DNA of 50,007 nucleotides from Planctomycetota bacterium (GCA_022616235.1 JAKEFC010000080.1:1-50007), one strand, 5' to 3'. Positions 10,716 through 41,004 are shown, counted from the first letter of the stretch. A program made the numbers and translations. The notes: generated by a model not told the origin, from the letters alone.

Positions 10716-11873
10716 TCAATCGGGCTCGGTGAGCGCGGCGAGCGCACGCGGCGGCGCGCCCGCTCCCATCTCGGCCTCCGCCGCCGCGAGGATCGCTTCG
10801 TGGCGTGGCAAGAAGGGAGCCGGCACGCCGCGCGGCGGATCTTCTGCGCCGAAGAGCGCGCGCAAGATCCCCGCTTCGAGGGCGTGGAGCCCCTTCCCCG
10901 CCAGTACGGAGACGGCAATTCCATCAGCGAGCGCAGGTGCAGCGCTGCCTGCCGCACCGCGGCGCTCGTCCGAACGCGAGTACACCTTGAGCATCGCGCA
11001 CCGGTCGCGAATGCGTCGTTCCTCCGCGCGCGACTCCGCGCTCGCATTCGGCGGCTCGAGGAAGACCACGAGGTCCGCGCGCGCGATCGCCTCCCGCATG
11101 CGCAGGACCCCCTCCCGCTCCAGCTCGTCGCCCGCTCCGCGGAGTCCGGCGCCGTCGCTGAGGAGTATCGGATAAGCCCCGATCACGGCGGGTTCCTCGA
11201 TGACGTCGCGCGTCGTGCCGGCCGCGGCATCGGTGACTACGCGCTCGCCACCGAGGAGGTAGTTGAAGAGCGTGCTCTTCCCCGCATTCGGCACGCCCGC
11301 GAGGACCACCCGCTTAGGCTCCAAGAGTCCGCGCGCGGCGGGGCCGCGGGCGCGAATCGCGCGCAATTCCGCCAAGGTCGGTGGGGGTGATCCTTGCACC
11401 GCCGCCTCCGCCCAACCGGCAAGGCCCGTCGCCTCTTCCGGCTGCCCCTGCTCGAGCAGAAGCTCCGCCGCCGCCAGAGTACGTACCCCCGGCAACAGAT
11501 CGAGCGCCTCGCGCCAGATGCGGGATGCTCCGGCGGCCGGAAATGCCCAGGCCGTCGGAAAGGTAATGGGCGGCGCTTCGGATGCGCCCGCGGCTGCCAG
11601 CGCCTCGCAAAGCTCGGCGACGAGCAGCGGATTGCCGTGCACGGTGAGGATGAATTCTGCCGATTCGTCGGGGCGCGGAATGACCATGCCGTCGTCGATC
11701 GTCGCCCCGCTCGCCGCGACGAAGCGCCCATAGCACGCGCGATCGCGAGGCACCCCGTGCTTTGACGTGAATACGCGCGCGAGCACCTCGCGGCTCCCCG
11801 GTCCGAGCAGCTCGAGGACGTGTAGCGCGCCGCGTCCGAACGGGGAAGCGCGCCGCACGTAGCAGGGCTTCAC
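10716..11873 (-). CDS. MnmE/TrmE-like GTPase, shortened and lacking the C-terminal CxGK motif
   Basis: TrmE_N-like start (ASPFGRGALHVL, IDDGMV, VHG); G1 GVPNAGKS, G2 GTTRD, G3 DGAG; GTGA overlap with the coaX stop. Confidence 0.75.
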   Translation of the reverse strand: MKPCYVRRASPFGRGALHVLELLGPGSREVLARVFTSKHGVPRDRACYGRFVAASGATIDDGMVIPRPDESAEFILTVHGNPLLVAELCEALAAAGASEAPPITFPTAWAFPAAGASRIWREALDLLPGVRTLAAAELLLEQGQPEEATGLAGWAEAAVQGSPPPTLAELRAIRARGPAARGLLEPKRVVLAGVPNAGKSTLFNYLLGGERVVTDAAAGTTRDVIEEPAVIGAYPILLSDGAGLRGAGDELEREGVLRMREAIARADLVVFLEPPNASAESRAEERRIRDRCAMLKVYSRSDERRGAAGSAAPALADGIAVSVLAGKGLHALEAGILRALFGAEDPPRGVPAPFLPRHEAILAAAEAEMGAGAPPRALAALTEPD

Positions 11874-12607
11874 GCCCCTCCCGACTGCGCCGCGGCCACA
11901 CGCAGGCCATCGAGCGTGAGATGCGGGGCAACGATCTCGATCCCCTCGCACGATGAGGAATACGTCGCCGCCCCGCCGCCGGTTGCCACGACGGCCGTGT
12001 CGCGCGCGAGCCTCTGTTTCATCGCGTGGATATGGAAACCGATGCCGCCGGCGAGCATGCCGAACACGCCGCGGCGAATCGCGTCCTTCGTGTCGCGGCC
12101 GTAGAGGATCTCGGTCGGCTCGATGTCGACGTACGGAAGGAGCGAGGTCCCGGACGCGAGCGAGCGCGCGAGCAGTTCCGGGCCGGGCAGGATCACGCCG
12201 CCGCAGAAGTCTCCCTGCGGAGAGACGACGTCGATCGTGACCGCCGTTCCGAAATCTACGATCAGCGCCGGCCGATTGGAGCGCTCGCGCCACGCGATCG
12301 CATTGAGCAGCCGGTCGGCGCCGACCAGGCGCGGGTCGGGCCCCAAGCAGCGAATCGGCAGTGGGTTATCCGCTCCGAGCTGCTCGATCGGAATCCCGCC
12401 CAGCGCGCCCCAGGAGTCTAGCCAGCGCGCAGCGCCATCGCGGTTGACAGACGCGAACACCGCACGCGCCGCTCCGCGCCACGCGGGGAGCGGTAATTCC
12501 CAGGGTCCGGCCGCGGGAAGGCGCCCGGCATCCGAGAGCGTGCTGCCCTCGAACACCCCCCAATGGAGGTTCGTGTTGCCGAGGTTGAGTGCGAGTAGCC
12601 GGTCCAT
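11870..12607 (-). CDS. coaX: Type III pantothenate kinase
   Basis: NLGNTN, GADRL, VDFGTAVT, GGVILPG, VATGG, HLTLDGL. Confidence 0.93.
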   Translation of the reverse strand: MDRLLALNLGNTNLHWGVFEGSTLSDAGRLPAAGPWELPLPAWRGAARAVFASVNRDGAARWLDSWGALGGIPIEQLGADNPLPIRCLGPDPRLVGADRLLNAIAWRERSNRPALIVDFGTAVTIDVVSPQGDFCGGVILPGPELLARSLASGTSLLPYVDIEPTEILYGRDTKDAIRRGVFGMLAGGIGFHIHAMKQRLARDTAVVATGGGAATYSSSCEGIEIVAPHLTLDGLRVAAAQSGGA

Positions 12608-12770
12608 GCCCCTCCATCGCGCCATGGGCAAAGTCCGCGATTATAAGCAGGTGGAGGCGGAGCAGCGCGAGTCTCTTTGGCGGCGCGCGGCGGCGCGCGG
12701 CGGCGCGGAGCATGCCGGAGCGCCGCTCCCGTGTCTGCCCCAGCGGACGCTCCGCCGATCATATGGCCCT

Positions 12771-12966
12771 CGTGTCGAGGCTCTGACTCGACACGCGCGG
12801 GCCCGCGGCTCTGCTTCCGATGGCGTGACGATGCGGTACGTGCCGGCCCGTGGGACTGAGAAGCGGCAGAGCCGCAGGGGCTCGGTGTCGAGGCGGAGCC
12901 TCGACACCAGGGGCTAACTCGAGGACCGCGCCTATCGCGGAGCATGCCGGAGCGTCGACACTAGGC
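12771..12966. repeat. REP/REPIN-like palindromic intergenic element, copy 1
   Basis: Palindromes GTGTCGAG..CTCGACAC and GGTGTCGAGGC-GGA-GCCTCGACACC-AGGGG flank an inner GCGGCTCTGC..GCAGAGCCGC stem; colinear with 34224-34427. Confidence 0.8.
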
Positions 12967-12991
12967 CGCGTCGATGGCGGGTAAGGCGGTC

Positions 12992-14089
12992 TTAGTACTC
13001 AAAGTGGAAGTCGTGGGCCATCGCGCCTTTGTAGATCCCCTTCAGCTCGAGCTTCAGCTCGTCGGGGTAGTCGGCGGCGGCCATGGCGTCCTCGAGGGCG
13101 ATCTCGTCGGACTGATAGAGCTTCTTCAAGCTCTGGTTGAAGGTCTGGCAACCGAAGTAGTCGCCTTCCTTGATGGCGGTGTACAGCTCGGGCGTGCGGC
13201 CCGCTTGCAGGAGGTCGCGGATCGTGGGGCTCGCGATCATCATTTCGAGGGCGGGCACGCGGCCACGGCCATGCTTGCGCGGGAGCAGTCGCTGGGACAC
13301 GACACCTTGCAGCACGAGGGAGAGCTGCAGGCGAATCAGCTCGTGCTGGTGGGGCGGGAAGTAGTTGATGATCCGCTCCACCGTCTGCGAGGCGTTGATG
13401 GAGTGCAGCGTCGAGAGCACGAGGTGGCCGGTCTCCGCGGCGTTGAGCGCCGCTTCCATCGTTTCGCGATCGCGCATTTCGCCGATCAGGATCACATCGG
13501 GGCTCTGGCGCAGCACGTGCTTCAGAGCATCGACGTAGTTGTGGGTGTCGATCCCGATCTCGCGCTGATCGATGATCGACTTCTTGTCTTTGAAAATGAA
13601 TTCGATCGGGTCTTCGATGGTAATGATGTGGCGGTTGAATTGCTCGTTCATGTGATTGAGCATCGCCGCCAACGTCGTGGATTTCCCCGAGCCGGTATTG
13701 CCGGTCACGAGAACCAGGCCGCGCGGCTGCGCGACCAGGCGACCGAGGACCTCGTCGGGAAGATTCAATTCGGCGAATGAGGGCACGGTGGCGATGATGT
13801 GGCGGAACACGAAACCGAGTTGACCGCGCTGGCGATAGATATTGACGCGAAAGCGGCCGATCCCGGGAAGCTCGTAGGCGGTGTCGATCTCGCAGTTGTT
13901 CGGGAGCGGATCGCGCCGCGAGTCCTCGATGATCTCCAACATCTCTTGCGTGTCCTGCGGAGCGATCTCTTCCGTGTCGAGGAAGTGCACGATGCCATCG
14001 ATCCGGAGCGTAGGAGGTCCGCCGACCTTGATGAAGAGGTCGGAGGCCTTCTCGATGACCATCTTGCGAAGCATTTCGTGGAATTCCAT
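12992..14089 (-). CDS. pilT: Type IV pilus retraction ATPase PilT/PilU family
   Basis: ASDLFIKVGGPP, GRFRVNIYRQRG, GNTGSGKST, TIEDPIE, LRQSPDVILIGEMRD, AETGHLVLSTLH. Confidence 0.93.
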   Translation of the reverse strand: MEFHEMLRKMVIEKASDLFIKVGGPPTLRIDGIVHFLDTEEIAPQDTQEMLEIIEDSRRDPLPNNCEIDTAYELPGIGRFRVNIYRQRGQLGFVFRHIIATVPSFAELNLPDEVLGRLVAQPRGLVLVTGNTGSGKSTTLAAMLNHMNEQFNRHIITIEDPIEFIFKDKKSIIDQREIGIDTHNYVDALKHVLRQSPDVILIGEMRDRETMEAALNAAETGHLVLSTLHSINASQTVERIINYFPPHQHELIRLQLSLVLQGVVSQRLLPRKHGRGRVPALEMMIASPTIRDLLQAGRTPELYTAIKEGDYFGCQTFNQSLKKLYQSDEIALEDAMAAADYPDELKLELKGIYKGAMAHDFHFEY

Positions 14090-14199
14090 CGAACCTCCTG
14101 ATAGGCGGCCGCGATCCTCGAGCCATATCCTTGGTCGCGGCGCACGATCGCTCCGTGCAGTCGTGCAATTCCCTCGTAGCTACCTTTCAGTATATCCCG

Positions 14200-15225
14200 C
14201 TATTCGGAGGGCGGCGAATTGCAGGCGCGGACGGCGCTCCAAGCAGCTTCGAGGAGGTCGGATAGCCCAGCGCCAGTCACCGCGGAAAGCGCCAGAACCG
14301 GTGCGCCGATGGCGCGAGAAAGCGCCGCGACGAGCGCGCCGCGTCGCTCCTCGGCGATGAGATCGATCTTGCCGATCGCGGTGAGCACACGGCGCTCTAC
14401 CAAGCGTGCGGAGAAGAGCCGCAGCTCCTCGCGGATGATCCGGTAATCTCGCACGAGATCTTCGACCGTGCGTTCGAACGGATCCAAGAGATGGACGAGC
14501 ACGCGAGTTCGCTCGAGGTGACGAAGGAACTCGGTGCCGAGACCTAGGCCGGTGTGGGCACCCTCGATCAGGCCGGGGATATCCGCGAAGGTGAGACGCC
14601 GCTCTCCGTCCAGGACCGCGATGCCGAGCTGGGGGGCGAGGGTCGTGAATGGATAGTCCGCGATCCGCGGGTGCGCCGCGGAGACGCGCGAGAGGAGGGT
14701 GGACTTGCCCGCGTTGGGAAGCCCCACGAGTCCGACGTCCGCCATGAGCTTGAGCACGAGCGACAGCTCGCGCTCGACCCCATCCTCGCCCCGCTCGCAC
14801 TCCCGCGGGGTTTGATGGGTCGCCGTGGCGAATGCCTTGTTGCCGCGGCCGCCGGCGCCGCCGCGAGCGACAAGGATCGAAGAATCGACGCGGTCGAGAT
14901 CGGCGAGAAGATCACCGGTCCTGCGGTCGCTCACCTGCGTGCCGACCGGGAGTCCAATGAGCAGATCGGCGCCGTTTCGTCCGGAGCAATTCTTGGCGCC
15001 GCCTGGGCGGCCATTCTCCGCCGCATAGATGTGGCGGTGGCCGAGATCGAACAGGCTCGTAAGTTGGGGATTCGATTGCAAGACGACGTGGCCGCCGCGG
15101 CCGCCATCTCCCCCGTCGGGGCCTCCGCGCGGAACGAACTTCTCGCGGCGAAAGGACACGCACCCTGCGCCGCCCTTTCCGCTCCGCACGAGGATCACTG
15201 CCTCGTCGACGAAATGAACGCCCAC
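14200..15225 (-). CDS. obgE: GTPase ObgE/CgtA
   Basis: FVDEA..FRREKFVPRGGPDGGDGG, GLPNAGKS, YPFTT, DIPG. Confidence 0.97.
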   Translation of the reverse strand: MGVHFVDEAVILVRSGKGGAGCVSFRREKFVPRGGPDGGDGGRGGHVVLQSNPQLTSLFDLGHRHIYAAENGRPGGAKNCSGRNGADLLIGLPVGTQVSDRRTGDLLADLDRVDSSILVARGGAGGRGNKAFATATHQTPRECERGEDGVERELSLVLKLMADVGLVGLPNAGKSTLLSRVSAAHPRIADYPFTTLAPQLGIAVLDGERRLTFADIPGLIEGAHTGLGLGTEFLRHLERTRVLVHLLDPFERTVEDLVRDYRIIREELRLFSARLVERRVLTAIGKIDLIAEERRGALVAALSRAIGAPVLALSAVTGAGLSDLLEAAWSAVRACNSPPSE

Positions 15226-15382
15226 AAAATCGCTCTCTAGGATTCAGATTGGAACGCAGAGCGCGTACAGCGCTGCCGGGCGCCGGCGCGGCTGCGCGCA
15301 GCCTCTTGGCGCGAGCCGGTACGCGCGGCACAGGGGTCCGGATCTGTTGAAGCGGAAGCGAATGGCGCGGGCGGCGGCTCGA

Positions 15383-15628
15383 TCAGGAGCTGGGATAGAC
15401 GCTGATTCGATTCCTGGTCTCGAACTTGACGCGGCCTTCGATCATTGCGAAGAGAGTGAAATCGCGGCCGAGACGTACGTTGTGCCCCGCGTTGAACTTC
15501 GTCCCGAGCTGGCGCACGAGGATCCCTCCGGCGCCCACCAGTTCGCCGTCGAACTTCTTGATCCCGCGGAATTGCGGCTGCGAATCGCGGCCGTTGCGGG
15601 AGGATCCCTGCCCCTTCTTGTGCGCCAT
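15383..15628 (-). CDS. rpmA: 50S ribosomal protein L27
   Basis: [33 protein letters not shown]. Confidence 0.97.
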
Positions 15629-15650
15629 GTCGCTGCTCCTCGATCTCGAT

Positions 15651-15965
15651 CTACTTCGCTTGGATGCTCTCGATGCGGACCTGCGTGTACACCTGCCGAT
15701 GTCCAGCCCTCGTGTGAGAGCCTTCCCGCCGGCGGAAGTGATGGTAGCGGACTTTCGGTCCTTTCGCTTCCGCGAGCACTTCCGCGACGACGCGCGCCCC
15801 CGCGACAAGCGGCTTACCTACATGGATCCGCTCCCCCTCTTCGATGGAGAGGACTTCTGAGAATTCGATGCGGCTGCCCGGCGCGGCTTCGCGGCGCTCG
15901 ATCGCAACCGTATCCCCTTCACTCACGCGGTATTGTTTCCCGCCGTCTCGAATGATCGCGATCAT
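15651..15965 (-). CDS. rplU: 50S ribosomal protein L21
   Basis: [18 protein letters not shown]; canonical rplU-rpmA-obgE order. Confidence 0.96.
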
Positions 15966-32959: not shown

Positions 32960-34168
32960 ATGGCGGAGGAGCACGACCCGCGACTCGCGATTCTCCATGC
33001 CGACATGGATGCGTTCTACGCGGCCGTGGAGGTCTTGGACGATCCGTCGCTCGCGGGAAAACCGGTGATCGTCGGCCACCCGGGGCGCCGCGGCGTGGTG
33101 GCGACGGCCTCGTACGAAGCGCGCCGATTCGGCGTCCGCTCCGCGATGGCCTCCCTGGAAGCGATGCGGCGCTGCCCGGAGGGGGTGTGGCGCGCACCGC
33201 GCATGGAACGCTACGCGGAGCTGTCGAGCCAGATTCGGGAGATCATGCTCCGCTTCACGCCGCTCGTGGAGCCGCTCTCACTCGATGAAGCTTTTCTCGA
33301 CGTTCGAGAGTCGCTCCGTCTCTTCGGAGGGGCGGTCGCGATCGCGCGCGCATTGCGCGCCGCCGTGCGGGAAGAGACCAAGCTCACGGTGTCCGTCGGG
33401 GTCGCGGAGAATCTGTTCCTGGCGAAGATTGCGAGCGATGCGAACAAGCCCGACGGCCTCACGGTGATCGACGCGGGGCGCGGCGCGGAGTATCTATCGG
33501 CGCTCCCCGTCTCCCGGCTCTGGGGGGTCGGACCGCGTACCGCGGAGCGGCTCGAGGCGCTCGGGCTGCGCCGAATCGGCGACATCCCCATCTACGGCGA
33601 GGCGCGCCTCGTGCGGCTCCTCGGCGAGGCGCACGGCCGGCACCTCCACCGTCTCGCGTTGGGGCTCGATGACCGCCGCGTCACGCCGGAGCGCGCCGCG
33701 AAGTCGATCTCGACGGAGAGCACGTTCGCGGAGGATCTCCATTCGCGCGCCGACATGGAGCGTTTCCTCTTCCAAGCCGCGGAGACGGTCGCCGAAGCGC
33801 TCCGCCGCGACGGTCTGCGGGCGCGCACCGTGGAGCTGAAGGTGCGGACCGCGAGTTTCCGCACCCAGATCCGGTCCCGTACGCTGGATTCATCGACGGA
33901 TCTCGCCGAGCGCATCTACGCGGCGGCCGTCGAGTTGTTCGAAACGCGCATCGACCTCGGCGGCGAAGGCGTGCGCCTGCTCGGCGTCGGCGCGAGCCAG
34001 CTCCAAAATGCGGGCCGACCCGCGCAAGGGGAGCTGTTTCCGCACGCCGCGGAGGGTGCCGGCAGGCGCGTCGCCCTCCTCCTCGATCGAATTCGCGACA
34101 AGCTCGGCCCAGAGGCAGCTCGCCGCGCGCGCCTCGTGGCACCGCCGAAGCCAGACAAGACGGAGTGA
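32960..34168 (+). CDS. dinB: DNA polymerase IV (Y family)
   Basis: HADMDAFYAAVE, ASYEARRFGV, SLDEAFLD, AKIASDANKPDG. Confidence 0.96.
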   Translation: MAEEHDPRLAILHADMDAFYAAVEVLDDPSLAGKPVIVGHPGRRGVVATASYEARRFGVRSAMASLEAMRRCPEGVWRAPRMERYAELSSQIREIMLRFTPLVEPLSLDEAFLDVRESLRLFGGAVAIARALRAAVREETKLTVSVGVAENLFLAKIASDANKPDGLTVIDAGRGAEYLSALPVSRLWGVGPRTAERLEALGLRRIGDIPIYGEARLVRLLGEAHGRHLHRLALGLDDRRVTPERAAKSISTESTFAEDLHSRADMERFLFQAAETVAEALRRDGLRARTVELKVRTASFRTQIRSRTLDSSTDLAERIYAAAVELFETRIDLGGEGVRLLGVGASQLQNAGRPAQGELFPHAAEGAGRRVALLLDRIRDKLGPEAARRARLVAPPKPDKTE

Positions 34169-34223
34169 CGTCGCACGAGTCGCTAGTCTGTCTCCATCAG
34201 CGCTCTGCCTATCAGCGGTTCAT

Positions 34224-34427
34224 CGTGTCGAGGCGGGGCCTCGACTAGGGAGGACCCGAGGCTCTGTCTCCGATGGCGGGACGATGCGGTGCTTGCCGGC
34301 CGGTGTCATGGAGATGCGGCAGAGCCGCGGGGGCGCGGTGTCGAGGCGGAGCCTCGACACCAGGGGGGCTACGCAAGAGCCGCGGTTATGACGGAGCGCG
34401 CCAGGCCTCGACGCCAGGAACGGCGGC
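34224..34427. repeat. REP/REPIN-like palindromic intergenic element, copy 2
   Basis: Same palindromes and inner stem as 12771-12966; lies between convergent dinB and the MetE-like gene. Confidence 0.8.
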
Positions 34428-34444
34428 GGAGAAGCTCGGCAGCA

Positions 34445-35587
34445 TCACGCGCGGAGGATACGCGCCGCGGCGGCGAGGGCCGCGAGCTTCGCCTCGGCGA
34501 CGCGCGCGCTGGCGACGGGGCGCTCCGCGAAGGTGCCGAATCCGCAATCGGGATTGAGAAAAATCCGCTCGGCCCCGAGCACGGCGGCCGCTTCGCGCGT
34601 GCGCGCCGCGATCCACGCGGGGGTTTCGATCTCTTCCGTGCGCGGATTGACGACGCCGAAGCCGAGCTGGGTGCGCTGCGGCAAGTCGCGAAGTGCGACG
34701 ACAGACCCCGCGCGCGGCGTCGCGTATTCGAGGACGAGCTGGCGCACCTTCATGCGCCGCAGGTACGGCACGAGCGGATCGTAAGGTCCCTCGAGCAGCA
34801 CATCTTCCCGCTGGCTCCAGTTGCCGCGGCAGATGTGGAGCGCGAGCAACGGACCCTCGATCCCGTCGACGACGCGGTTGATCAACTCCACCGCGAACTC
34901 CAGCTCGCGCTCCGGACTCGCGCTCGCCGCCAGCGCCGCGCACATGAACGTGCGCGTCGCGGACTTGCCGGCGAATACCAGCTCGGTGAGCACCGGCTCG
35001 TCGAACTGAATCAATTCCGCCCCTTCCCGCGCCAACTCTTTGACTTCATCGCGGAGGATGCGGACGAAGTCATCCGCGAGCGATTCTCGGGTCGGGTACG
35101 CGCCTTCGGAGAGGGACTTCACCCAAGTGGATCTGCTCAAGAGATAAGGGCCTGGAAGCGTCACTTTGACCGGCCGGCGCGTATGCGCCCGCAAGAAGCG
35201 ATAGTCGCCGAGCACGAGCGGCTCGCGCACCGACAGCCTGCCGACCACGGTAGGGTTCTTGATTGCGTAAGCCGGAACGTCGAGCGCGCCGAGCAGCGCC
35301 TCGAATCCCGCCTTGTCCTCCACGTAGTCGAGCAGCTCCGCCATCGTCATGAGACGGATCCCATCCAGGCGCTCGGTGATGAAGGAGTAGAAATTGTCGC
35401 GCCGCTGCTCGCCGTCGGAAACGATGTCTACGCCCGCGTCCTCTTGCCTCTTGATCGCGAGCAGCGTCGCGTCGTCTTGAAGCTCTCGCAGATTGGGAGC
35501 GCGCCGCTTCATCGCCTCGAGCAACCAAGAGGGGCGCGGCCAGCTTCCGACGACGGTCACTGGGTAGAGCGGCCAGCGCGGGGTCAT
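34445..35587 (-). CDS. Single-barrel cobalamin-independent methionine synthase II (MetE C-terminal/CIMS-like) family Zn enzyme
   Basis: VVGSWPRP, SDGEQRR, QFDEP, Zn ligands LHICRGN / LEYA / NPDCGF; no N-terminal MetE barrel. Confidence 0.88.
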   Translation of the reverse strand: MTPRWPLYPVTVVGSWPRPSWLLEAMKRRAPNLRELQDDATLLAIKRQEDAGVDIVSDGEQRRDNFYSFITERLDGIRLMTMAELLDYVEDKAGFEALLGALDVPAYAIKNPTVVGRLSVREPLVLGDYRFLRAHTRRPVKVTLPGPYLLSRSTWVKSLSEGAYPTRESLADDFVRILRDEVKELAREGAELIQFDEPVLTELVFAGKSATRTFMCAALAASASPERELEFAVELINRVVDGIEGPLLALHICRGNWSQREDVLLEGPYDPLVPYLRRMKVRQLVLEYATPRAGSVVALRDLPQRTQLGFGVVNPRTEEIETPAWIAARTREAAAVLGAERIFLNPDCGFGTFAERPVASARVAEAKLAALAAAARILRA

Positions 35588-36324
35588 GTCCTCCTCAATT
35601 CGACGTGCAGGGGTATCTCGCGGAAGAGCGACTGTGCGACCGGCGAACGGGCGATGGTCTCCCGCCAGAGGCTCTCGATCTCTTCATCGCTGCCGTCCGC
35701 ATCGATGAAGAGCTTTCCTTCGACCGCCGCGAGCCCGGGATGGCCGCCCTCTTCGACGCCCAAGAAGTAGAGGATATTGTCGGCGCGCGCTTCGAGCGAG
35801 ACTTCCAGGTTGCGGACGGCGACGCTCCGCTGCGACATGCGCCAAGCGAGCCCCACCGCGAGACAACCCGCCAGCGCTCCGAGCAGGTACTCGATCGCGC
35901 TTGGCGCCGGATCCGCGGTGTCGAAGCTCGCCGGCTGCCCGATCGCGAAGGAGTGGCTGCGAGCGAAGGCCTTCGCGTGCAAGCCATCGCTCCAGCGCAC
36001 GCGCACCCGCCAGCGATAGTCGCGAGCCCGCTCCAGATCCGAGCCGAGGGAAGCGTCCTCGCCGCGCTTGCGGATGAAGTAGCGGGTGACGCGCGGTTCC
36101 ACGGCGGCGCTGCCGACGAGCGTGTGCCCCACCATGCGACACCATGCAGGCAAATCTTCCCGCACGCTGCTCTCGCGGCTCCGTACCTCGAGCACGCCGC
36201 CGGGAGGGAGCGGCTGCATGGCGTTTCGGATGATGAGCAGGAGGCCGCTCCCGCAGTCGAGATCGCCTCCATCGCACATCGCGTCCGCGCGCGGCAGGCC
36301 GTGGTCTTCGCCGGGAAGGCTCAT
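35584..36324 (-). CDS. TusA/SirA-like sulfurtransferase fused to an OsmC-like domain
   Basis: DGGDLDCGSGLL..GGVLEV..EDLPAWCRMVGH, then PSAIEYLLGALAGCL..RSPVAQSL. Confidence 0.82.
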   Translation of the reverse strand: MSLPGEDHGLPRADAMCDGGDLDCGSGLLLIIRNAMQPLPPGGVLEVRSRESSVREDLPAWCRMVGHTLVGSAAVEPRVTRYFIRKRGEDASLGSDLERARDYRWRVRVRWSDGLHAKAFARSHSFAIGQPASFDTADPAPSAIEYLLGALAGCLAVGLAWRMSQRSVAVRNLEVSLEARADNILYFLGVEEGGHPGLAAVEGKLFIDADGSDEEIESLWRETIARSPVAQSLFREIPLHVELRRT

Positions 36325-36334
36325 TGGAAATTCC

Positions 36335-36703
36335 TCAATAGGTGATCGCGGGGCTACCGTCGCCCAGGAACTCGACGAGCTTCGCGCCGCCGACGATCGT
36401 AGCGCCGGGGACGAGTTTACCCTCGTCGAGGTTGCGCTTTTTGAAGCAGGGGGAGCAGACCCAGATCTTTCCTCCAGCTTTCACGAAGTTCCCCATCAAT
36501 TCCGCGAGCGGAGCGAAGCCGCTCTCGTGGATCCTCTCTGCGCTTCCGCGCTGCGACAGGAGCACGCCTTCCGTGCTCAAGAAGACGAGAGTCTCCTTGT
36601 CGGACGCGGCGGCCGCGTTCGCGACGACGAACGCGACCGTCGCCTTGTCGGGATTGTCCAAGGAGCAAGTCAGACTCACGCAGAATTTCTTCGACACGGT
36701 CAT
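36335..36703 (-). CDS. DsrE/DsrF-like family protein
   Basis: AFVVANAAA..VFLSTEGV..GGKIWVCSPCFKKR; ATGA overlap with the upstream gene. Confidence 0.85.
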   Translation of the reverse strand: MTVSKKFCVSLTCSLDNPDKATVAFVVANAAAASDKETLVFLSTEGVLLSQRGSAERIHESGFAPLAELMGNFVKAGGKIWVCSPCFKKRNLDEGKLVPGATIVGGAKLVEFLGDGSPAITY

Positions 36704-37329
36704 TCCGCCTTTCGTTCGATCCGGTAGTGCGGGTGGGCGGCCTCGAGCATCGTATGACCCGTGAGGCCGCACCAGGCCGGCAGGTCCGCCGGCGCGCCGG
36801 GGTCCCTGGCGGTCACCGCGAGGATGGCCCCCGGCGGCAACGCGCGCAGGCGTAGCCTCAACTCGAGGACCAGGTCCCCGCACGACATGTCTCCCGCGTC
36901 CCATGTCGCATCGGGTTCGCGGTCGAGCGCCGCTTTCGCTCCGCCTACTTTGCCGCGCGCCCCGCCGCCGCCGGCTCCCGCGCCGCTCGCGCGATACCAG
37001 TCGGCGAATGCGTCCTGCGGCAGGGCCGTAGCCGCGAGGCCGAGCGCGATATTTGCCCACTCCCACCCCGCGCGGAAGCAATCGATCCGTCTCGCGTAGT
37101 CGTGCACCTCCTCGAGCAGCTCGCGCCGATCGCGGCCGAGGAGCGCGGCGGCGCAGGGCAGGCAATACGGCGTGCTCTTGTAGCCGAGGAGCACGCTCGC
37201 CACGTAGTCATGGCCGCCGACGCGAGCGTGGCACCGCGCGCAAAGCACGCCGCCAAGGCGCGAAAGCTCCTCGAGCAGCGCCGCTTTGCGCGCGTTCTCT
37301 TCCCCAGGGGCAGGAGAGCCGCCGAACAT
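36700..37329 (-). CDS. Cys-rich (CxxC..CxxC) N-terminal domain fused to a TusA-like sulfurtransferase
   Basis: CARC..YCLPC..DCFRAGW, Gly/Ala linker, WDAGDMSCGDLVLELR..DPGAPADLPAWCGLTGH; AGAGAGG RBS. Confidence 0.8.
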   Translation of the reverse strand: MFGGSPAPGEENARKAALLEELSRLGGVLCARCHARVGGHDYVASVLLGYKSTPYCLPCAAALLGRDRRELLEEVHDYARRIDCFRAGWEWANIALGLAATALPQDAFADWYRASGAGAGGGGARGKVGGAKAALDREPDATWDAGDMSCGDLVLELRLRLRALPPGAILAVTARDPGAPADLPAWCGLTGHTMLEAAHPHYRIERKAE

Positions 37330-37344
37330 CGCCGCCTCTCTTCT

Positions 37345-38430
37345 CTACTTCTTCTCCTTGAAGGTCAGCTTGCGTGTGTATTCGCTCGACTCCTTGCCGT
37401 CGATCTCGACGTATGCTTTCGCCATCGCGTTCACCGGACCTCCGGTCTGCTTCGGCTCGAGGGTGAGGTCGCGGCCTTGCGACCAGGTGATGCGACGCTC
37501 CTCGAGATTGCCGAAGTAATAGTTCACCTTCGCCAGGTCCGTGCCGGAATATCCATCCGCAGTCGTCAATCCCACCTTGCCTTTGTTGCCGTCGGTGAGC
37601 TTGAAATCGCCGACGAAGATGTCCGCCACCGCGACGTCGAGCGGCACCCAACCGATGCCGGGCGCGAAGAACTCGAGCCAACAATGATAGCTCTGATCCT
37701 TGTCATGCCCATCCAGCTCCTTCTTCAGGAACGAGCCGTAGATGATGCGAGTCGGGATTCCCGCGGCACGGGAGAGCGACATGTAGAGCGAATGGAAATC
37801 GGTGCAGTTGCCGGTCTTCGACGAGAGACAATATTCGGTATTACCCGTCGGCGAAGCCTTCTTGTGGTCGGGGTCCTTGACCCAATAATCGATGTTCGCG
37901 AGGACCCAATCGTAGATCTTGCGCGACGCGGCGATCGGGTTCTTCTCGTCGCCGACGATCGTGCGCGACAGCTCCTTGATCTTGTCATCGATGACGACGT
38001 TCGCGTGCGGGCCCAAGTACTTCTGCTTGTCCGCGAGGTCCTGCGCGGAATAGGCGCGGGTCATCGCCGGATCGACCGCGACGCTCACCTCGCTCCGGGC
38101 GACGGTGAACGCGGTCGTCACCTTGAATTCCCCGGCCGCGGGCGAGGCAAGCTCGAAGTACAAATACTCGTTCCCATCCTGGTCCTTCGTATCGCGCCCG
38201 GCGACCGGAGCGTCGACCTTCCAATTCGTGACCCTCTGCGCCGGATCCGCTTGGGGCCGCGTAAACCAGATGCGGACCTGTTTGGCGCCGGCGGGCACTT
38301 TTACCGCCAGCTCGTGCTGCACGTCGAAGACCGCCTGCTTCGCCGCCGCCGCCGCCGCCGCCGCGTCGCCTTGGGCGGTGCAAAGGATGCCGGCGAAGAG
38401 CGTGCCGAGGATCCAATTCTGCGATCTCAT
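37345..38430 (-). CDS. Exported transglutaminase-like (Cys-His-Asp) domain protein
   Basis: Signal peptide; GNCTDFHSL..RAAGIPTR, YHCWLEFF..GWVPLD; GAGGGG RBS. Confidence 0.88.
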   Translation of the reverse strand: MRSQNWILGTLFAGILCTAQGDAAAAAAAAKQAVFDVQHELAVKVPAGAKQVRIWFTRPQADPAQRVTNWKVDAPVAGRDTKDQDGNEYLYFELASPAAGEFKVTTAFTVARSEVSVAVDPAMTRAYSAQDLADKQKYLGPHANVVIDDKIKELSRTIVGDEKNPIAASRKIYDWVLANIDYWVKDPDHKKASPTGNTEYCLSSKTGNCTDFHSLYMSLSRAAGIPTRIIYGSFLKKELDGHDKDQSYHCWLEFFAPGIGWVPLDVAVADIFVGDFKLTDGNKGKVGLTTADGYSGTDLAKVNYYFGNLEERRITWSQGRDLTLEPKQTGGPVNAMAKAYVEIDGKESSEYTRKLTFKEKK

Positions 38431-38498
38431 TGTCGTCCCTCTTTCCAAAGTGCCGGCGTGCCGCCAGCACCGTCTTTTTTTCTCGGAGTACCCGTGGC

Positions 38499-39809
38499 TT
38501 AGAAGTGGTAGGCGATCCAGAGCCGGTAGCGGTTGTCCCGCCCTTCCGCGATGCCGCGGAAGTCCGTCTCCCAATGCATGTATTCGAATCCGACTTCCAC
38601 CGGCTTCCAGGAGATGATCTTGCCGCCTGCGTAGCCGATCTCGTTGCGCGTGCGGCCGGCCGCGGCGCCGCCGTTCGTGACGTCGGTGCGGTTCGGCTCA
38701 TCCGCCGAGTAGCCGACGAACAGCTCCAGCGCCTGCGACGGCCTGCCGCCGAATTCGATCCAGTATCCCTGCGAATGCACTTCCTCGCCGGCGACGACGC
38801 CCTGGCCAATGCCTCCGCGCAGGTCGTCGAGATTCGAGCCCTTCCAGATCTCGCCGCGGACGTAGGCCGTATCGCCGACGTACACGTTCGCGTCGAGTCC
38901 CCACAGGATCACGTTGAAGTCGTCATCGCCCGCGACTGGCACATCCGTTTCCTCCCACCCGCGCGCCCCCCAAATTCCGATCGACAAGGGGCCCTTGGCC
39001 TTGCCCTCCGGCGCCGTGGCGACTGGCGACGGCACCTCGAAGCCGAGGCGCGCCTGCAATTGCGGGAGACCGGCATCCTCGCCGTCGAGGATCGTGTCGC
39101 CGTTCGCGTCCGAGTTGTCGATCGCGCTCTGCAACGCGAGCGCGCCCTGCACGAGGAATTTCGCCTCGCCATGTTTGTGCTCGTACGTAAGACGCGCCTG
39201 CGGGCGGCGGTCGCCGGTATTGCCGGCGTTCCAATTCAACATGTCGGGATTGGCCGACGGCCAGAGCGGCGACACGAGGTCGATCGTCTGACCGCCGAGG
39301 AAGGTGACGTTTCCCTTCTTGAGCGTGAGATACGCGTGGCGCATGCGGAAGGAGTTCCGCGAATTCGAACCCGCGCCGTAGAAGTCCACTTCGATCTTGC
39401 CGTCTACGTCGAACGATTCGAGCGTGGGACCGTTGAAGTCGAAGCCGATGCGAGTGAGGCGCGTGTAGAGCGAGAAGTAGTCGTCGTTCTTGTGCGCGCC
39501 CGTATTGACGTCCTCGGACGCGATGAAGATCGGAATCTGGGATGTGTTCGGCTCCGAGTCGTCGTATACGGCGTCGATGCGTGCGAATCCGTAGAGCTTG
39601 AAATAGGACCCGAGCTTGGTGAGGAACTCGGAAGTCTTCTGCGCTCTCTCGAGCACTTCGACTCTTTTCGCGAGGTCGGTCGGATCGCCGGTCGCCGCCG
39701 GCTGCTGTTGCGCGAACGAATCCGCGCGCGCCTGCGCTGCGACGGCGAGAGGCAGGACGACCGCGGCGAACCAGAGCAGCGCGCGGACAGGAGACTGTGC
39801 GCAATTCAT
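38499..39809 (-). CDS. Outer-membrane porin, DcaP-like
   Basis: Signal peptide, short coiled coil, FKLYGFARID, TRIGF, GKIEVDF, RMRHAY, RRPQARL, C-terminal YHF beta-barrel signature. Confidence 0.82.
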   Translation of the reverse strand: MNCAQSPVRALLWFAAVVLPLAVAAQARADSFAQQQPAATGDPTDLAKRVEVLERAQKTSEFLTKLGSYFKLYGFARIDAVYDDSEPNTSQIPIFIASEDVNTGAHKNDDYFSLYTRLTRIGFDFNGPTLESFDVDGKIEVDFYGAGSNSRNSFRMRHAYLTLKKGNVTFLGGQTIDLVSPLWPSANPDMLNWNAGNTGDRRPQARLTYEHKHGEAKFLVQGALALQSAIDNSDANGDTILDGEDAGLPQLQARLGFEVPSPVATAPEGKAKGPLSIGIWGARGWEETDVPVAGDDDFNVILWGLDANVYVGDTAYVRGEIWKGSNLDDLRGGIGQGVVAGEEVHSQGYWIEFGGRPSQALELFVGYSADEPNRTDVTNGGAAAGRTRNEIGYAGGKIISWKPVEVGFEYMHWETDFRGIAEGRDNRYRLWIAYHF

Positions 39810-39812
39810 TGG

Positions 39813-39905
39813 TTACCCCCTATGCCCTTCCTTCTGATTGCGATTCCGATGATGATTCCGGGAGCCGTGCGCGGAGTGACCCCATGCCACGCCGTGCAGG
39901 TGCAT
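39813..39905 (-). other. Candidate His-rich leader ORF (30 aa) upstream of the porin operon
   Basis: MHLHGVAWGHSAHGSRNHHRNRNQKEGHRG*, stop 3 nt before the porin ATG; no clear SD of its own. Confidence 0.3.
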
Positions 39906-40092
39906 GGGAAGCGGAAGGACCGAGGGGAGCTGCCCGGTTAGGTCGCGGGCGATGCGGTGCGCGGAGGATTGCGAACGGGAGAGTGCGTGCCGCTAGGTCC
40001 CAATACCAGAAATGGTCCCGCCACTTCGCAGGACGGGGCGTCAGCCAAACGGCAACGAGATCAGACTAGAAACGGCGCGGCGTGAAGCGAAC

Positions 40093-41004
40093 ATGATCCC
40101 GGACGCTACTGGAAGAAAAGGGCGCGGTCAAGGCGAAGAAGAGATCTCTCGGCGCAGCAAGATCGCCTCGCGCGAGTTGGGTGCGGGCATCGAAAGAGAG
40201 AGTACCCTGCGCGAGGAAGGCGCTTCCCCGCTGTCCCCGCATGTAACTGCCTTGGAGGCACCGGCGCCCTTCTTGCGCGCCGTAGAGGAACTGGGGATCG
40301 AATTCGAAGGCGCGGAGCTTTCGCGGCTCGGCCTCTATCTCGCGCACCTTCTCGACACGACTAGGCGATTCAATCTGACGGCCATCCGCGACCCCGAACA
40401 GGCCTGGACCCGACACATCCTGGACAGCCTCTCTCTGTTCCCGCTGCTCGTCACGCAGAATGCGAAGCGCGTGGCCGACGTCGGCTCGGGAGGAGGCCTG
40501 CCGGGATTGCCGCTCGCCATTCTATTGCCGCGCACGCGCTTCTCGTTGATCGAGGCAACCGGCAAGAAGGCGCGCTTTCTCGCCGCCGTTGCCGAGCGTC
40601 TCGCGCTCGCGAACGTTGCCGTGTGCGAAGGGCGCGCGGAGATGCTCGCTCACGATCGCGCGGTCCATCGCGAGAGCTACGACGCCGTCCTCGCGCGCGC
40701 GGTCGGACCGCTTGCCACGCTCATCGAGTTGACTGCGCCATTCGCCAAGGTCGGCGGGCTCATCGTGGCGATCAAGGGTGAGCGCGCGGCTGCGGAAGTC
40801 GCCGCCGCCAAGCGCGCGCTCGAGGCGCTTCGACTCGCCGTCGAGAAGACGCGGCGCACGGCGACGGGGACACTGGTAATCCTGCGAAAGAATCAGTCGA
40901 CGCCGCGCGGCTTTCCGCGCCGCCCCGGCGAACCCGCCCACAATCCGCTCGGGGTATCGCGCGGGCCGCGCGTGCCCAAGCGGAAGGACCGGCGCGGCGT
41001 GTGA
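40093..41004 (+). CDS. rsmG: 16S rRNA m7G527 methyltransferase
   Basis: FNLTAIRD, HILDSL, DVGSGGGLPG, IEATGKK, RAVG, FPRRPG; start uncertain (possibly TTG near 40252). Confidence 0.92.
   Translation: MIPDATGRKGRGQGEEEISRRSKIASRELGAGIERESTLREEGASPLSPHVTALEAPAPFLRAVEELGIEFEGAELSRLGLYLAHLLDTTRRFNLTAIRDPEQAWTRHILDSLSLFPLLVTQNAKRVADVGSGGGLPGLPLAILLPRTRFSLIEATGKKARFLAAVAERLALANVAVCEGRAEMLAHDRAVHRESYDAVLARAVGPLATLIELTAPFAKVGGLIVAIKGERAAAEVAAAKRALEALRLAVEKTRRTATGTLVILRKNQSTPRGFPRRPGEPAHNPLGVSRGPRVPKRKDRRGV

Follow-up and report, generated by a model that had tools for sequence, protein, structure and literature searches.

A candidate chalcogen-relay module joining TusA- and DsrE-type carriers to a MetE-like zinc enzyme in Planctomycetota and other bacteria

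What could unite an outer-membrane porin, an exported cysteine enzyme, carriers of protein-bound sulfur and a single-barrel relative of methionine synthase in one gene cluster? The question is raised by a locus in a 50,007-nucleotide (nt) stretch of DNA from a Planctomycetota bacterium (GCA_022616235.1 JAKEFC010000080.1:1-50007; "the window" below means this whole stretch), in which six co-oriented genes encode, in order, a DcaP-like porin, a transglutaminase-like protein, a TusA protein with an additional N-terminal domain (X-TusA), a DsrE-family protein, a TusA-OsmC fusion and a MetE-like enzyme. An initial annotation, made from the sequence alone, regarded them as a candidate sulfur-relay operon. 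We lean, with moderate confidence, towards a conserved chalcogen-relay module in which such carriers would serve a terminal enzyme with the MetE fold. The decisive feature is one that the initial annotation overlooked, an extra loop of the MetE-like enzyme that carries Cys or, in some relatives, probably selenocysteine (Sec) at position 216.

Two overlapping samples of related loci were compared with the window. The first came from an alignment-based scan with one genome per species, which gave at least 539 stretches with a relative of the MetE-like protein; the best 80 were taken, and their MetE-like proteins were 56–78% identical to that of the window. The second sample, which is less biased, was the window's own phylum, in which 54 of 401 genomes had a MetE-like orthologue (E ≤ 1e-100) and 53 loci other than the window's were examined. 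Both samples draw on the same species-representative collection, and their counts are not additive. A third sample comprised 301 genomes of a second phylum (that of genome G002, whose locus is labelled Acidobacteriota), five of which carried the orthologue, four of these being new. Partner genes were counted by tblastn with the window's proteins, as matches co-oriented with and upstream of the MetE-like gene.

Counted in this way, DsrE was found in 61/80 loci and in 48/53 own-phylum loci, and a separate TusA gene, the counterpart of X-TusA, in 56/80 and 42/53. A full TusA-OsmC gene was present in 64 of the 80 loci (directly adjacent in 50), and 10 further loci had an OsmC-only gene; among the own-phylum loci, TusA with or without OsmC occurred in 51/53. 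Within the 80 loci, the DsrE/TusA-OsmC/MetE-like core was detected in loci labelled Planctomycetota (30/30), Acidobacteriota (9/14), Methylomirabilota (3/5), Verrucomicrobiota (1/1), Actinomycetota (1/1), Poribacteria (13/20) and Chloroflexota (1/4). Because the same gene order recurs across loci whose MetE-like proteins are merely 45–78% identical, the arrangement is far beyond chance. The initial annotation had treated the genes as a single unit, a view open to challenge had they failed to co-occur elsewhere; they do co-occur, in both samples, as a conserved gene set.

The loci differ in how the TusA and MetE-like domains are arranged. In a first architecture, that of the window, a separate TusA-OsmC gene overlaps the start of the MetE-like gene. 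A second architecture was seen in 26/53 own-phylum loci, with a MetE-like protein that is 45–55% identical; in 22 of these 26 (45–50% identical) the adjacent TusA match spans the TusA part only. In 20 of these 22 (20/53 own-phylum loci), TusA and MetE-like domains lay in one open frame, with no stop between them, and Pfam detected both TusA and Meth_synt_2 in two fused examples of 505 and 507 residues. The fusions of about 505 residues were found by frame analysis; a search for longer fused MetE-like forms gave three matches, none of them with partner domains. Nothing argues more strongly for a direct action of TusA with the enzyme than this TusA::MetE-like fusion, which also gives most support to the tie between the TusA/DsrE proteins and the MetE-like enzyme that the initial annotation had claimed. 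Since loci with this fusion lack the OsmC domain, that domain is dispensable.

The MetE-like enzyme itself could not be placed in a described methionine synthase family. Identity with two-barrel MetE was rejected, as the protein has 380 residues versus about 750, has no folate-binding barrel at its N terminus and matches the corresponding model (TIGR01371) with only 69.1 bits versus a cut-off of 929.95, over model positions 423–619 only. Membership in the MesA–MesD families was likewise rejected, as judged by NCBIfam equivalog scores: all methionine synthase models stayed below their cut-offs, the best being PRK04326 (172 versus 406), followed by PRK09121 (142 versus 392), PRK00957 (99 versus 258) and PRK01207 (57 versus 399). 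Which model stands for which Mes family is our assumption, the one scoring 142 versus 392 being presumably that which best fits the MesD group. A structure model of the enzyme (AlphaFold, 79 sequences, mean predicted local distance difference test score, pLDDT, 88.2) was built from an alignment in which two of the 80 loci, each with an in-frame stop, were omitted. The closest solved structure was 3RPD, a MesD protein, both by sequence (E 5e-30) and by Foldseek (E 6.5e-23, TM 0.72–0.80, 27% identity).

The HxC, E and C motifs of 3RPD and 1YPX, which we take to be the Zn ligands of MetE proteins, are matched in alignment by residues H251, C253, E287 and C348. According to the available part of its description, 3RPD is MesD of Shewanella, and its residues Ser22, Glu73 and Asp188 contact selenomethionine (Price 2021, PMC7857596). 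In a HMMER alignment, these three residues correspond to S15, E60 and D196 of the window's enzyme. All seven positions (S15, E60, D196, H251, C253, E287 and C348) are kept in 80/80 and 53/53 orthologues, and the Zn site proposed in the initial annotation is thus intact. Because the Zn motifs and the S15/E60/D196 triad are invariant, the design of the MetE-like enzyme still seems suited to binding an amino acid of the homocysteine type whose chalcogen sits on zinc.

Residues 201–230, directly after the strand that bears D196, have no counterpart in 3RPD. This segment was modelled as a helix and a low-confidence loop (208–221, pLDDT <50), and the topology of the TIM barrel would place the loop on the catalytic face. 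The loop contains the motif TFM-C, in which C216 is found in 78/80 loci, the other two having TGA at this position. Among own-phylum loci, Cys was present in 48/53 and TGA in 5/53, and one of the four new orthologues of the second phylum had TGA as well. The six TGA216 forms fall into two clades (67–75% identity within and 49–54% between them), one of which spans both phyla. In all six, the frame stays conserved past the TGA through the Zn ligands, and selA was found in 5/5 own-phylum genomes with a TGA216 form. Hairpins occur downstream of the TGA, including a 7-bp stem common to one clade, but their energies were not beyond those of shuffled controls (z −1.08, −0.54, +0.11, −0.24 and −1.98).

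We interpret position 216 as a Cys/Sec pair, a pattern that typically signals a catalytic nucleophile. MetE-like orthologues with TGA216 probably represent a new selenoprotein family, the downstream hairpins being no more than candidates for the selenocysteine insertion sequence (SECIS). The window's own MetE-like gene uses Cys at position 216, although its host genome decodes Sec. Reviews of selenoproteins include DsrE-like (UxxC), OsmC-like and rhodanese-like proteins among the known members, as far as their available text shows. In the main text of two reviews of selenoproteomes, one of 2022 and one of May 2026, a word search found no methionine synthase, MetE, homocysteine or PF01717, although their supplements may hold one; the MetE-like enzyme would add a family to the bacterial selenoproteins named in those main texts. 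In our judgement, a relay of methyl groups through residue 216 is chemically unlikely, because a thio- or selenoether would be a poor methyl donor.

Conserved Cys residues are likewise a rule in the carriers, and a motif Cys is present, as the initial annotation had noted, in the translations of all five non-porin products. In X-TusA, C150 is kept in 54/54 orthologues and C187 in 53/54 (from an ORF-based alignment only; ORF, open reading frame). The N-terminal domain of this protein (residues 1 to ~135, with a CxxC...CxxC pattern) had no Pfam match, gave only "hypothetical" and a weak zinc-ribbon lead in Protein Atlas, and occurs in roughly half of the TusA orthologues. In the TusA-OsmC protein, C24 and C62 are kept in 64/64 orthologues. 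The DsrE protein has a C83-S-P-C86 motif whose CxxC pattern is kept in 61/61 and 49/49 orthologues, the same type of motif position as the UxxC of DsrE-like selenoproteins in the available text of the reviews. The OsmC-like domain is an exception to this rule: C154 is Cys in 50/72 orthologues and otherwise Ala (13), Asp (8) or Glu (1), and position 232 is Ser or Thr in 70/71 and never Cys, these being the positions that we take to correspond to the canonical OsmC Cys residues. A role as canonical thiol peroxidase, or as obligatory peroxidase partner, was rejected on these grounds and because a subfamily of loci does without the domain; the thiol redox role that the initial annotation ascribed to the OsmC fold is not supported. 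A complex prediction for the MetE-like and TusA-OsmC proteins gave 0.14 and 0.16, below the 0.32 mark, and was not used as evidence either way.

Translationally coupled or fused Cys-containing carriers, a zinc enzyme with a homocysteine pocket and a Cys/Sec nucleophile together suggest that residue 216 would receive a sulfane sulfur or selenium atom from the carriers or give it up to them. In the mechanism that we propose, the cytoplasmic carriers (X-TusA, the CxxC DsrE and TusA-OsmC) would pass protein-bound sulfane sulfur, or its selenium equivalent, from cysteine to cysteine, the final receiver being Cys216 (Sec in some species), borne by a flexible loop on the catalytic side of the MetE-like barrel. 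A homocysteine-type amino acid would be bound by Ser15, Glu60 and Asp196, with its chalcogen held on the His/Cys/Glu/Cys zinc site, and the chemistry would take place between the loop Cys/Sec and this zinc-bound substrate. The porin and the exported transglutaminase-like enzyme would be an optional front end, probably aiding the acquisition of a substrate from outside in outer-membrane bacteria. Three parts of this scheme are our inference: which way the transfer runs, which atom is carried and what the reaction is. As to the reaction, the leading candidate is a transfer of sulfur or selenium in which a homocysteine-type molecule is donor or acceptor, such as (seleno)homocysteine formation fed by the relay, and even this candidate is at best unlikely when taken singly.

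Several observations weigh against a relay that ends in this enzyme. We know of no chemistry in which a MetE fold accepts a persulfide, and the Zn site and homocysteine pocket would be equally required by a plain methionine synthase. In a third architecture, found in 8/80 loci (for example L049, L072, L073, L077 and L078), the MetE-like gene is accompanied by an OsmC-only gene, with no TusA or DsrE; several of these loci have an Rv1679-family acyl-CoA dehydrogenase (442 bits versus a cut-off of 600) and an Rv1680-family binding-protein-like gene without signal peptide (~257 bits versus a cut-off of 400), showing that other partners can serve the MetE-like enzyme. Partner genes were absent from the flanks in 2/53 loci (L085 and L110). 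The OsmC domain is missing from part of the loci and varies at its Cys position, which the relay reading does not account for. We saw no sulfur source, such as a rhodanese or a cysteine desulfurase, among the genes of the operon in the window, related loci not having been searched for one. Finally, the active Cys of both TusA domains is followed by G-[D/S] (C-G-[D/S]) and is not part of CPxP, which is quoted as the motif of SirA/TusA-like domains in the accessible text of one report (PMC5322559).

The context of OsmC-only, Rv1679-family and Rv1680-family genes was observed at L077:7164-11176 and also in L049, L072, L073, L078, L064, L079, L047, L136 and L137. The MetE-like enzyme in this context is ~55–60% identical and keeps C216. 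No functional information on Rv1679, Rv1680 or moeX of Mycobacterium was found in the searched literature.

Among the alternatives, the one that survives best concerns the extent of the unit: the porin and the exported transglutaminase-like enzyme may constitute a separate envelope function upstream of a four-gene cytoplasmic module, which we regard as quite possible without favouring it. Both genes are frequent but optional members of the unit. A DcaP-type porin gene was found upstream and co-oriented in 13/80 loci (12 labelled Planctomycetota and one unlabelled) and in 20/53 own-phylum loci, and the transglutaminase-like gene in 31/80 (at least 3.5 kb of upstream DNA being available in 64 loci) and 27/53; about half of the loci lack them, including all 20 labelled Poribacteria. 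The gaps between the six ORFs, from the porin to the MetE-like gene, are 68, 15, −4, 10 and −4 nt, the widest falling between the porin and transglutaminase-like genes, and no mechanistic link between the envelope genes and the cytoplasmic module is known. However, the gap of 15 nt separates the transglutaminase-like gene from X-TusA, no terminator was detected between the cluster genes in a pattern scan of positions 34000–40400, and the transglutaminase-like gene lies directly upstream of TusA in loci of four phylum labels and in both MetE-like subfamilies, whose enzymes are merely 45–50% identical to each other. Moreover, a second beta-barrel family, unrelated to DcaP and having a signal peptide and C-terminal Phe, lies beside the module in seven further loci, which suggests that an outer-membrane channel was repeatedly recruited.

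The relay reading leaves open which element is carried, and a narrower alternative settles on selenium. The carriers would hold it as thioselenide and either hand it on in the direction of SelD or act on a homocysteine or methionine analogue that contains selenium; TusA and the CxxC DsrE would together form a split equivalent of YedF. This view, which partly overlaps the relay reading, seems to us possible, though less likely than not. Own-phylum genomes show an association with selD, found in 51/54 module carriers and in 211/347 non-carriers (odds ratio 11, Fisher p 1.4e-7, a value overstated because it ignores kinship among these non-independent genomes). Two of the three selD-less carriers have the TGA216 form together with selA, so that selD was probably missed there by the assembly. 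The gene was also present in 5/5 diverse carriers and in 4/4 further carriers. In L029 (2839-4709, to ~6341), TusA-OsmC and the MetE-like gene are directly followed by selD (TIGR00476, 335.7 bits, cut-off 125), then by a putative selenate ATP-binding cassette (ABC) binding protein with signal peptide (TIGR04553, 326.1 bits, cut-off 250), an ABC ATPase and a likely permease; in L025 (3866-4726, minus strand), a SelD homologue with 42% identity adjoins the MetE-like gene. The window's own genome (G000) has selD with an in-frame TGA beside a selA fragment that is divided between two contig ends, with selB elsewhere, and judged by this gene content the organism is a Sec-decoding one. For YedF, in which TusA is combined with a DsrE part containing CGXC, a link to SelD is reported in the part of the source available (Lin et al. 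2015, PMC5322559).

On the other hand, selD is common anyway (262/401 own-phylum genomes by TIGR00476 at E ≤ 1e-40, and 233/301 in the second phylum), and its presence in 5/5 carriers of the second phylum is uninformative against that background, which includes the unpublished genomes G427, G452 and G549. A SelD homologue was found in the flanks of just 2/133 loci (L029 and L025) and none in the window, and SelA or SelB neither in these loci nor in the window. Most orthologues have Cys and not Sec at position 216, and a Sec residue in an enzyme is uninformative on its substrate. The initial annotation had mentioned selenium as an option only; TGA216, the association with selD and the linkage in L029 now give that option real weight, the element itself being left open.

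Less probable still, and in our judgement unlikely, is that the enzyme is a plain accessory methionine synthase, a fifth folate-independent "core" family that would methylate homocysteine and for which TusA, DsrE and OsmC would just keep the thiols of the zinc site and loop reduced or protected. Its fully conserved Zn ligands and homocysteine-binding triad would fit, as would the lack of the folate barrel, which is shared with the Mes families, and the fact that MesD and the catalytic barrel of MetE are its closest relatives by sequence and fold. Two of five carriers (G002 and G004, the genomes of loci L009 and L011) have neither metH nor two-barrel metE. MesD likewise needs an accessory protein whose role is unknown, according to the available part of that study (Price 2021, PMC7857596). 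However, the two metH-less carriers possess 2–3 further single-barrel MetE-like paralogues that score 110–125 bits against the MetE model, above the module's enzyme, and the window's genome itself encodes metH (1002 bits), as do 2/4 other carriers tested. With metH in the window's genome, the module enzyme was rejected as the sole methionine synthase, and folate-independent Met synthesis, which the initial annotation had suggested, is unlikely as a sole route. Neither a S-adenosylmethionine (SAM) or cobalamin riboswitch nor any Rfam match besides transfer RNA (tRNA) and tmRNA was detected in the window and 22 loci. A MetY-type sulfhydrylase passed the cut-off in 0/5 carriers, all of which have related pyridoxal phosphate (PLP) enzymes, making this result uninformative. 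An in-frame TusA fusion is hard to explain as mere protection, since TusA has a known role in carrying sulfur and none as a reductase, and an invariant Cys/Sec nucleophile in a loop without counterpart in 3RPD argues in the same direction. Quite improbable, finally, is a chalcogen-inserting enzyme, in which a relay-loaded persulfide or thioselenide on Cys/Sec216, activated by zinc, would attack an activated homoserine-type substrate bound by the Ser/Glu/Asp triad to give (seleno)homocysteine without PLP or free sulfide or selenide, the porin and exported cysteine enzyme capturing the sulfur or selenium source.

Features of the window's locus and of its genome are collected in Table 1. The six genes, gaps and domains described in the initial annotation match the ORFs and Pfam results exactly, with every domain above its curated cut-off, and the position given there between dinB and rsmG agrees with matches in the flanks to a DinB-type polymerase (IMS, 168.9 bits) and RsmG (GidB, 165.3 bits). 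The two overlaps, each of 4 nt, join the start of DsrE to the stop of X-TusA and the start of the MetE-like gene to the stop of TusA-OsmC. Signal peptides are seen in the translations of the porin and of the transglutaminase-like enzyme, but in none of the other four. A promoter/terminator pattern scan of positions 34000–40400 gave counts at chance (1 versus 0.5 expected and 6 versus 4.7 expected).

Table 1. Coordinates of the module and of selenocysteine-machinery matches (window positions unless another source is given)
Feature	Position	Strand	Evidence or remark
DcaP-like outer-membrane porin	38499-39809	minus	ORF; Pfam DcaP 36.1 bits (cut-off 27)
Transglutaminase-like exported cysteine enzyme	37345-38430	minus	ORF; Transglut_core (PF01841) 83 bits (cut-off 23)
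X-TusA	36700-37329	minus	ORF; TusA (PF01206) 37.7 bits (cut-off 28.6), residues 144-199
X-TusA N-terminal Cys-rich domain, 135 residues	36925-37329	minus	C30-x-x-C33 ... C56-x-x-C59, C84; without Pfam match
DsrE-family protein	36335-36703	minus	ORF; DsrE (PF02635) 55.3 bits (cut-off 22.7)
TusA-OsmC fusion	35584-36324	minus	ORF; TusA 28.9 bits (cut-off 28.6) and OsmC 42 bits (cut-off 27.5)
MetE-like single-barrel Zn enzyme, 380 aa	34445-35587	minus	ORF; Meth_synt_2 95.9 bits (cut-off 21)
Codon 216 of the MetE-like gene, TGC (Cys)	34940-34942	minus	Family-specific loop residue; TGA in some orthologues
Sec-machinery hits in the window's genome (G000)	C163:2194-3925; C25:4-927; C225:9981-11858		selD, selA, selB

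In the porin, the DcaP match (PF19577) spans residues 68–212 of 436 only; in its translation, a coiled-coil-like stretch is seen towards the N terminus, and the last residue is Phe. The ORF of the transglutaminase-like protein is given from an ATG start, and a longer frame with a TTG start exists too. The nearest solved structure to this protein is 3isr (E 0.0027), and its Protein Atlas labels are generic only. The triad C209/H249/D265 is kept in 30/30 orthologues of the 80-locus set; in the own-phylum set, Cys209 is kept in 29/30 (one Tyr) and His249 and Asp265 in 30/30. Members of the second beta-barrel family, which had no Pfam or NCBIfam match, were located at L048:3835-5121, L046:6804-8282 and L023:5793-7046 (minus strand), and in L024, L036, L037 and L042. 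The initial annotation had noted that no inner-membrane transporter is part of the operon, which is true of the window and fails for two relatives, L010 and L029, in which a PhnD-type binding protein with signal peptide and ABC genes adjoin the module.

Poribacteria-labelled loci (L052–L080, ~11300–15800) show an arrangement of their own. Downstream of their MetE-like gene come a conserved DUF4432 gene, a weakly matching DUF3352-like one and others of unknown kind, and 0.1 to >9 kb is inserted between the MetE-like gene and TusA/DsrE/TusA-OsmC (including tautomerase-like and DUF4268 genes and a gene for an unknown protein of 160 residues). In the order of the window's genome, the distribution of orthologues is patchy, with 2/19 genomes in one family and 3/4 in another. 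This patchiness among relatives, together with the TGA216 clade that spans two phyla, suggests horizontal spread.

If the relay reading is correct, a TusA/DsrE persulfide-type relay would end in an enzyme with the methionine synthase fold, a link not described in the searched literature; the initial annotation, too, had named no characterised pathway with this gene set, and none was found in that literature. The module occurs under at least seven phylum labels, which are often met with in soil, sediment, sponge and anammox-reactor communities, and is carried by 54/401 genomes of one phylum; what it does matters for the ways in which numerous uncultured bacteria acquire or process sulfur or selenium.

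Known relays lead from TusA to TusBCD in tRNA thiolation and to DsrEFH in Dsr sulfur oxidation. They share with the module the carrier families (TusA and DsrE/TusD), whose active cysteines hand sulfur to a terminal enzyme. They differ in the acceptor, which is a tRNA thiolase or DsrC there and a methionine-synthase-fold Zn enzyme (with Sec in some species) here, and in having a heterohexamer in place of the single small CxxC DsrE. A second comparison is with the sulfur-carrier-protein-dependent synthesis of homocysteine by HcyS with MetY in Wolinella. There, too, protein-bound sulfur and not free sulfide builds homocysteine or methionine, which would be a shared outcome if homocysteine is the product here; however, that system uses ubiquitin-like thiocarboxylate carriers and PLP enzymes, whereas the module has persulfide-type carriers and a Zn TIM barrel.

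MesD with MesX resembles the module enzyme with its partners in having a single MetE-type barrel without the folate barrel, in the HxC/E/C motifs and Ser/Glu/Asp contacts common to both, and, in the available part of its description, in depending on an accessory protein, with an unknown co-substrate (PMC7857596). In contrast, identity to MesD is 27%, the 30-residue Cys/Sec216 loop is absent from 3RPD, and the partner is MesX there and TusA, DsrE and OsmC here; MesX (DUF1852, PF08908) was matched in 0/5 carriers, the 14 control genomes being equally silent, and none lies in the operon. YedF likewise contains a TusA-type and a DsrE-type part with CxxC and, like the module, is statistically linked to SelD as far as the accessible text goes (PMC5322559). 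YedF, however, is one protein, whereas the module has separate genes, two TusA copies, a MetE-like enzyme at its end and C-G-[D/S] in place of CPxP, and the YedF model (TIGR03527) gave no match at E ≤ 0.01 in the NCBIfam search. The SAO system is, in the portion of its report available (10.1101/2022.07.06.499078), another multi-gene neighbourhood with shared Cys/Sec motifs, a DsrE-like CxxC protein (SaoD) and an ABC transporter. Its other families are unrelated (a MerB-like lyase and others), its organisms are strict anaerobes, and it has no MetE-like enzyme or TusA. Set against these systems, TusA and DsrE carriers are the known part of the module, and what would be new is a relay of the persulfide type that serves a MetE-fold enzyme outside the MesA–D families.

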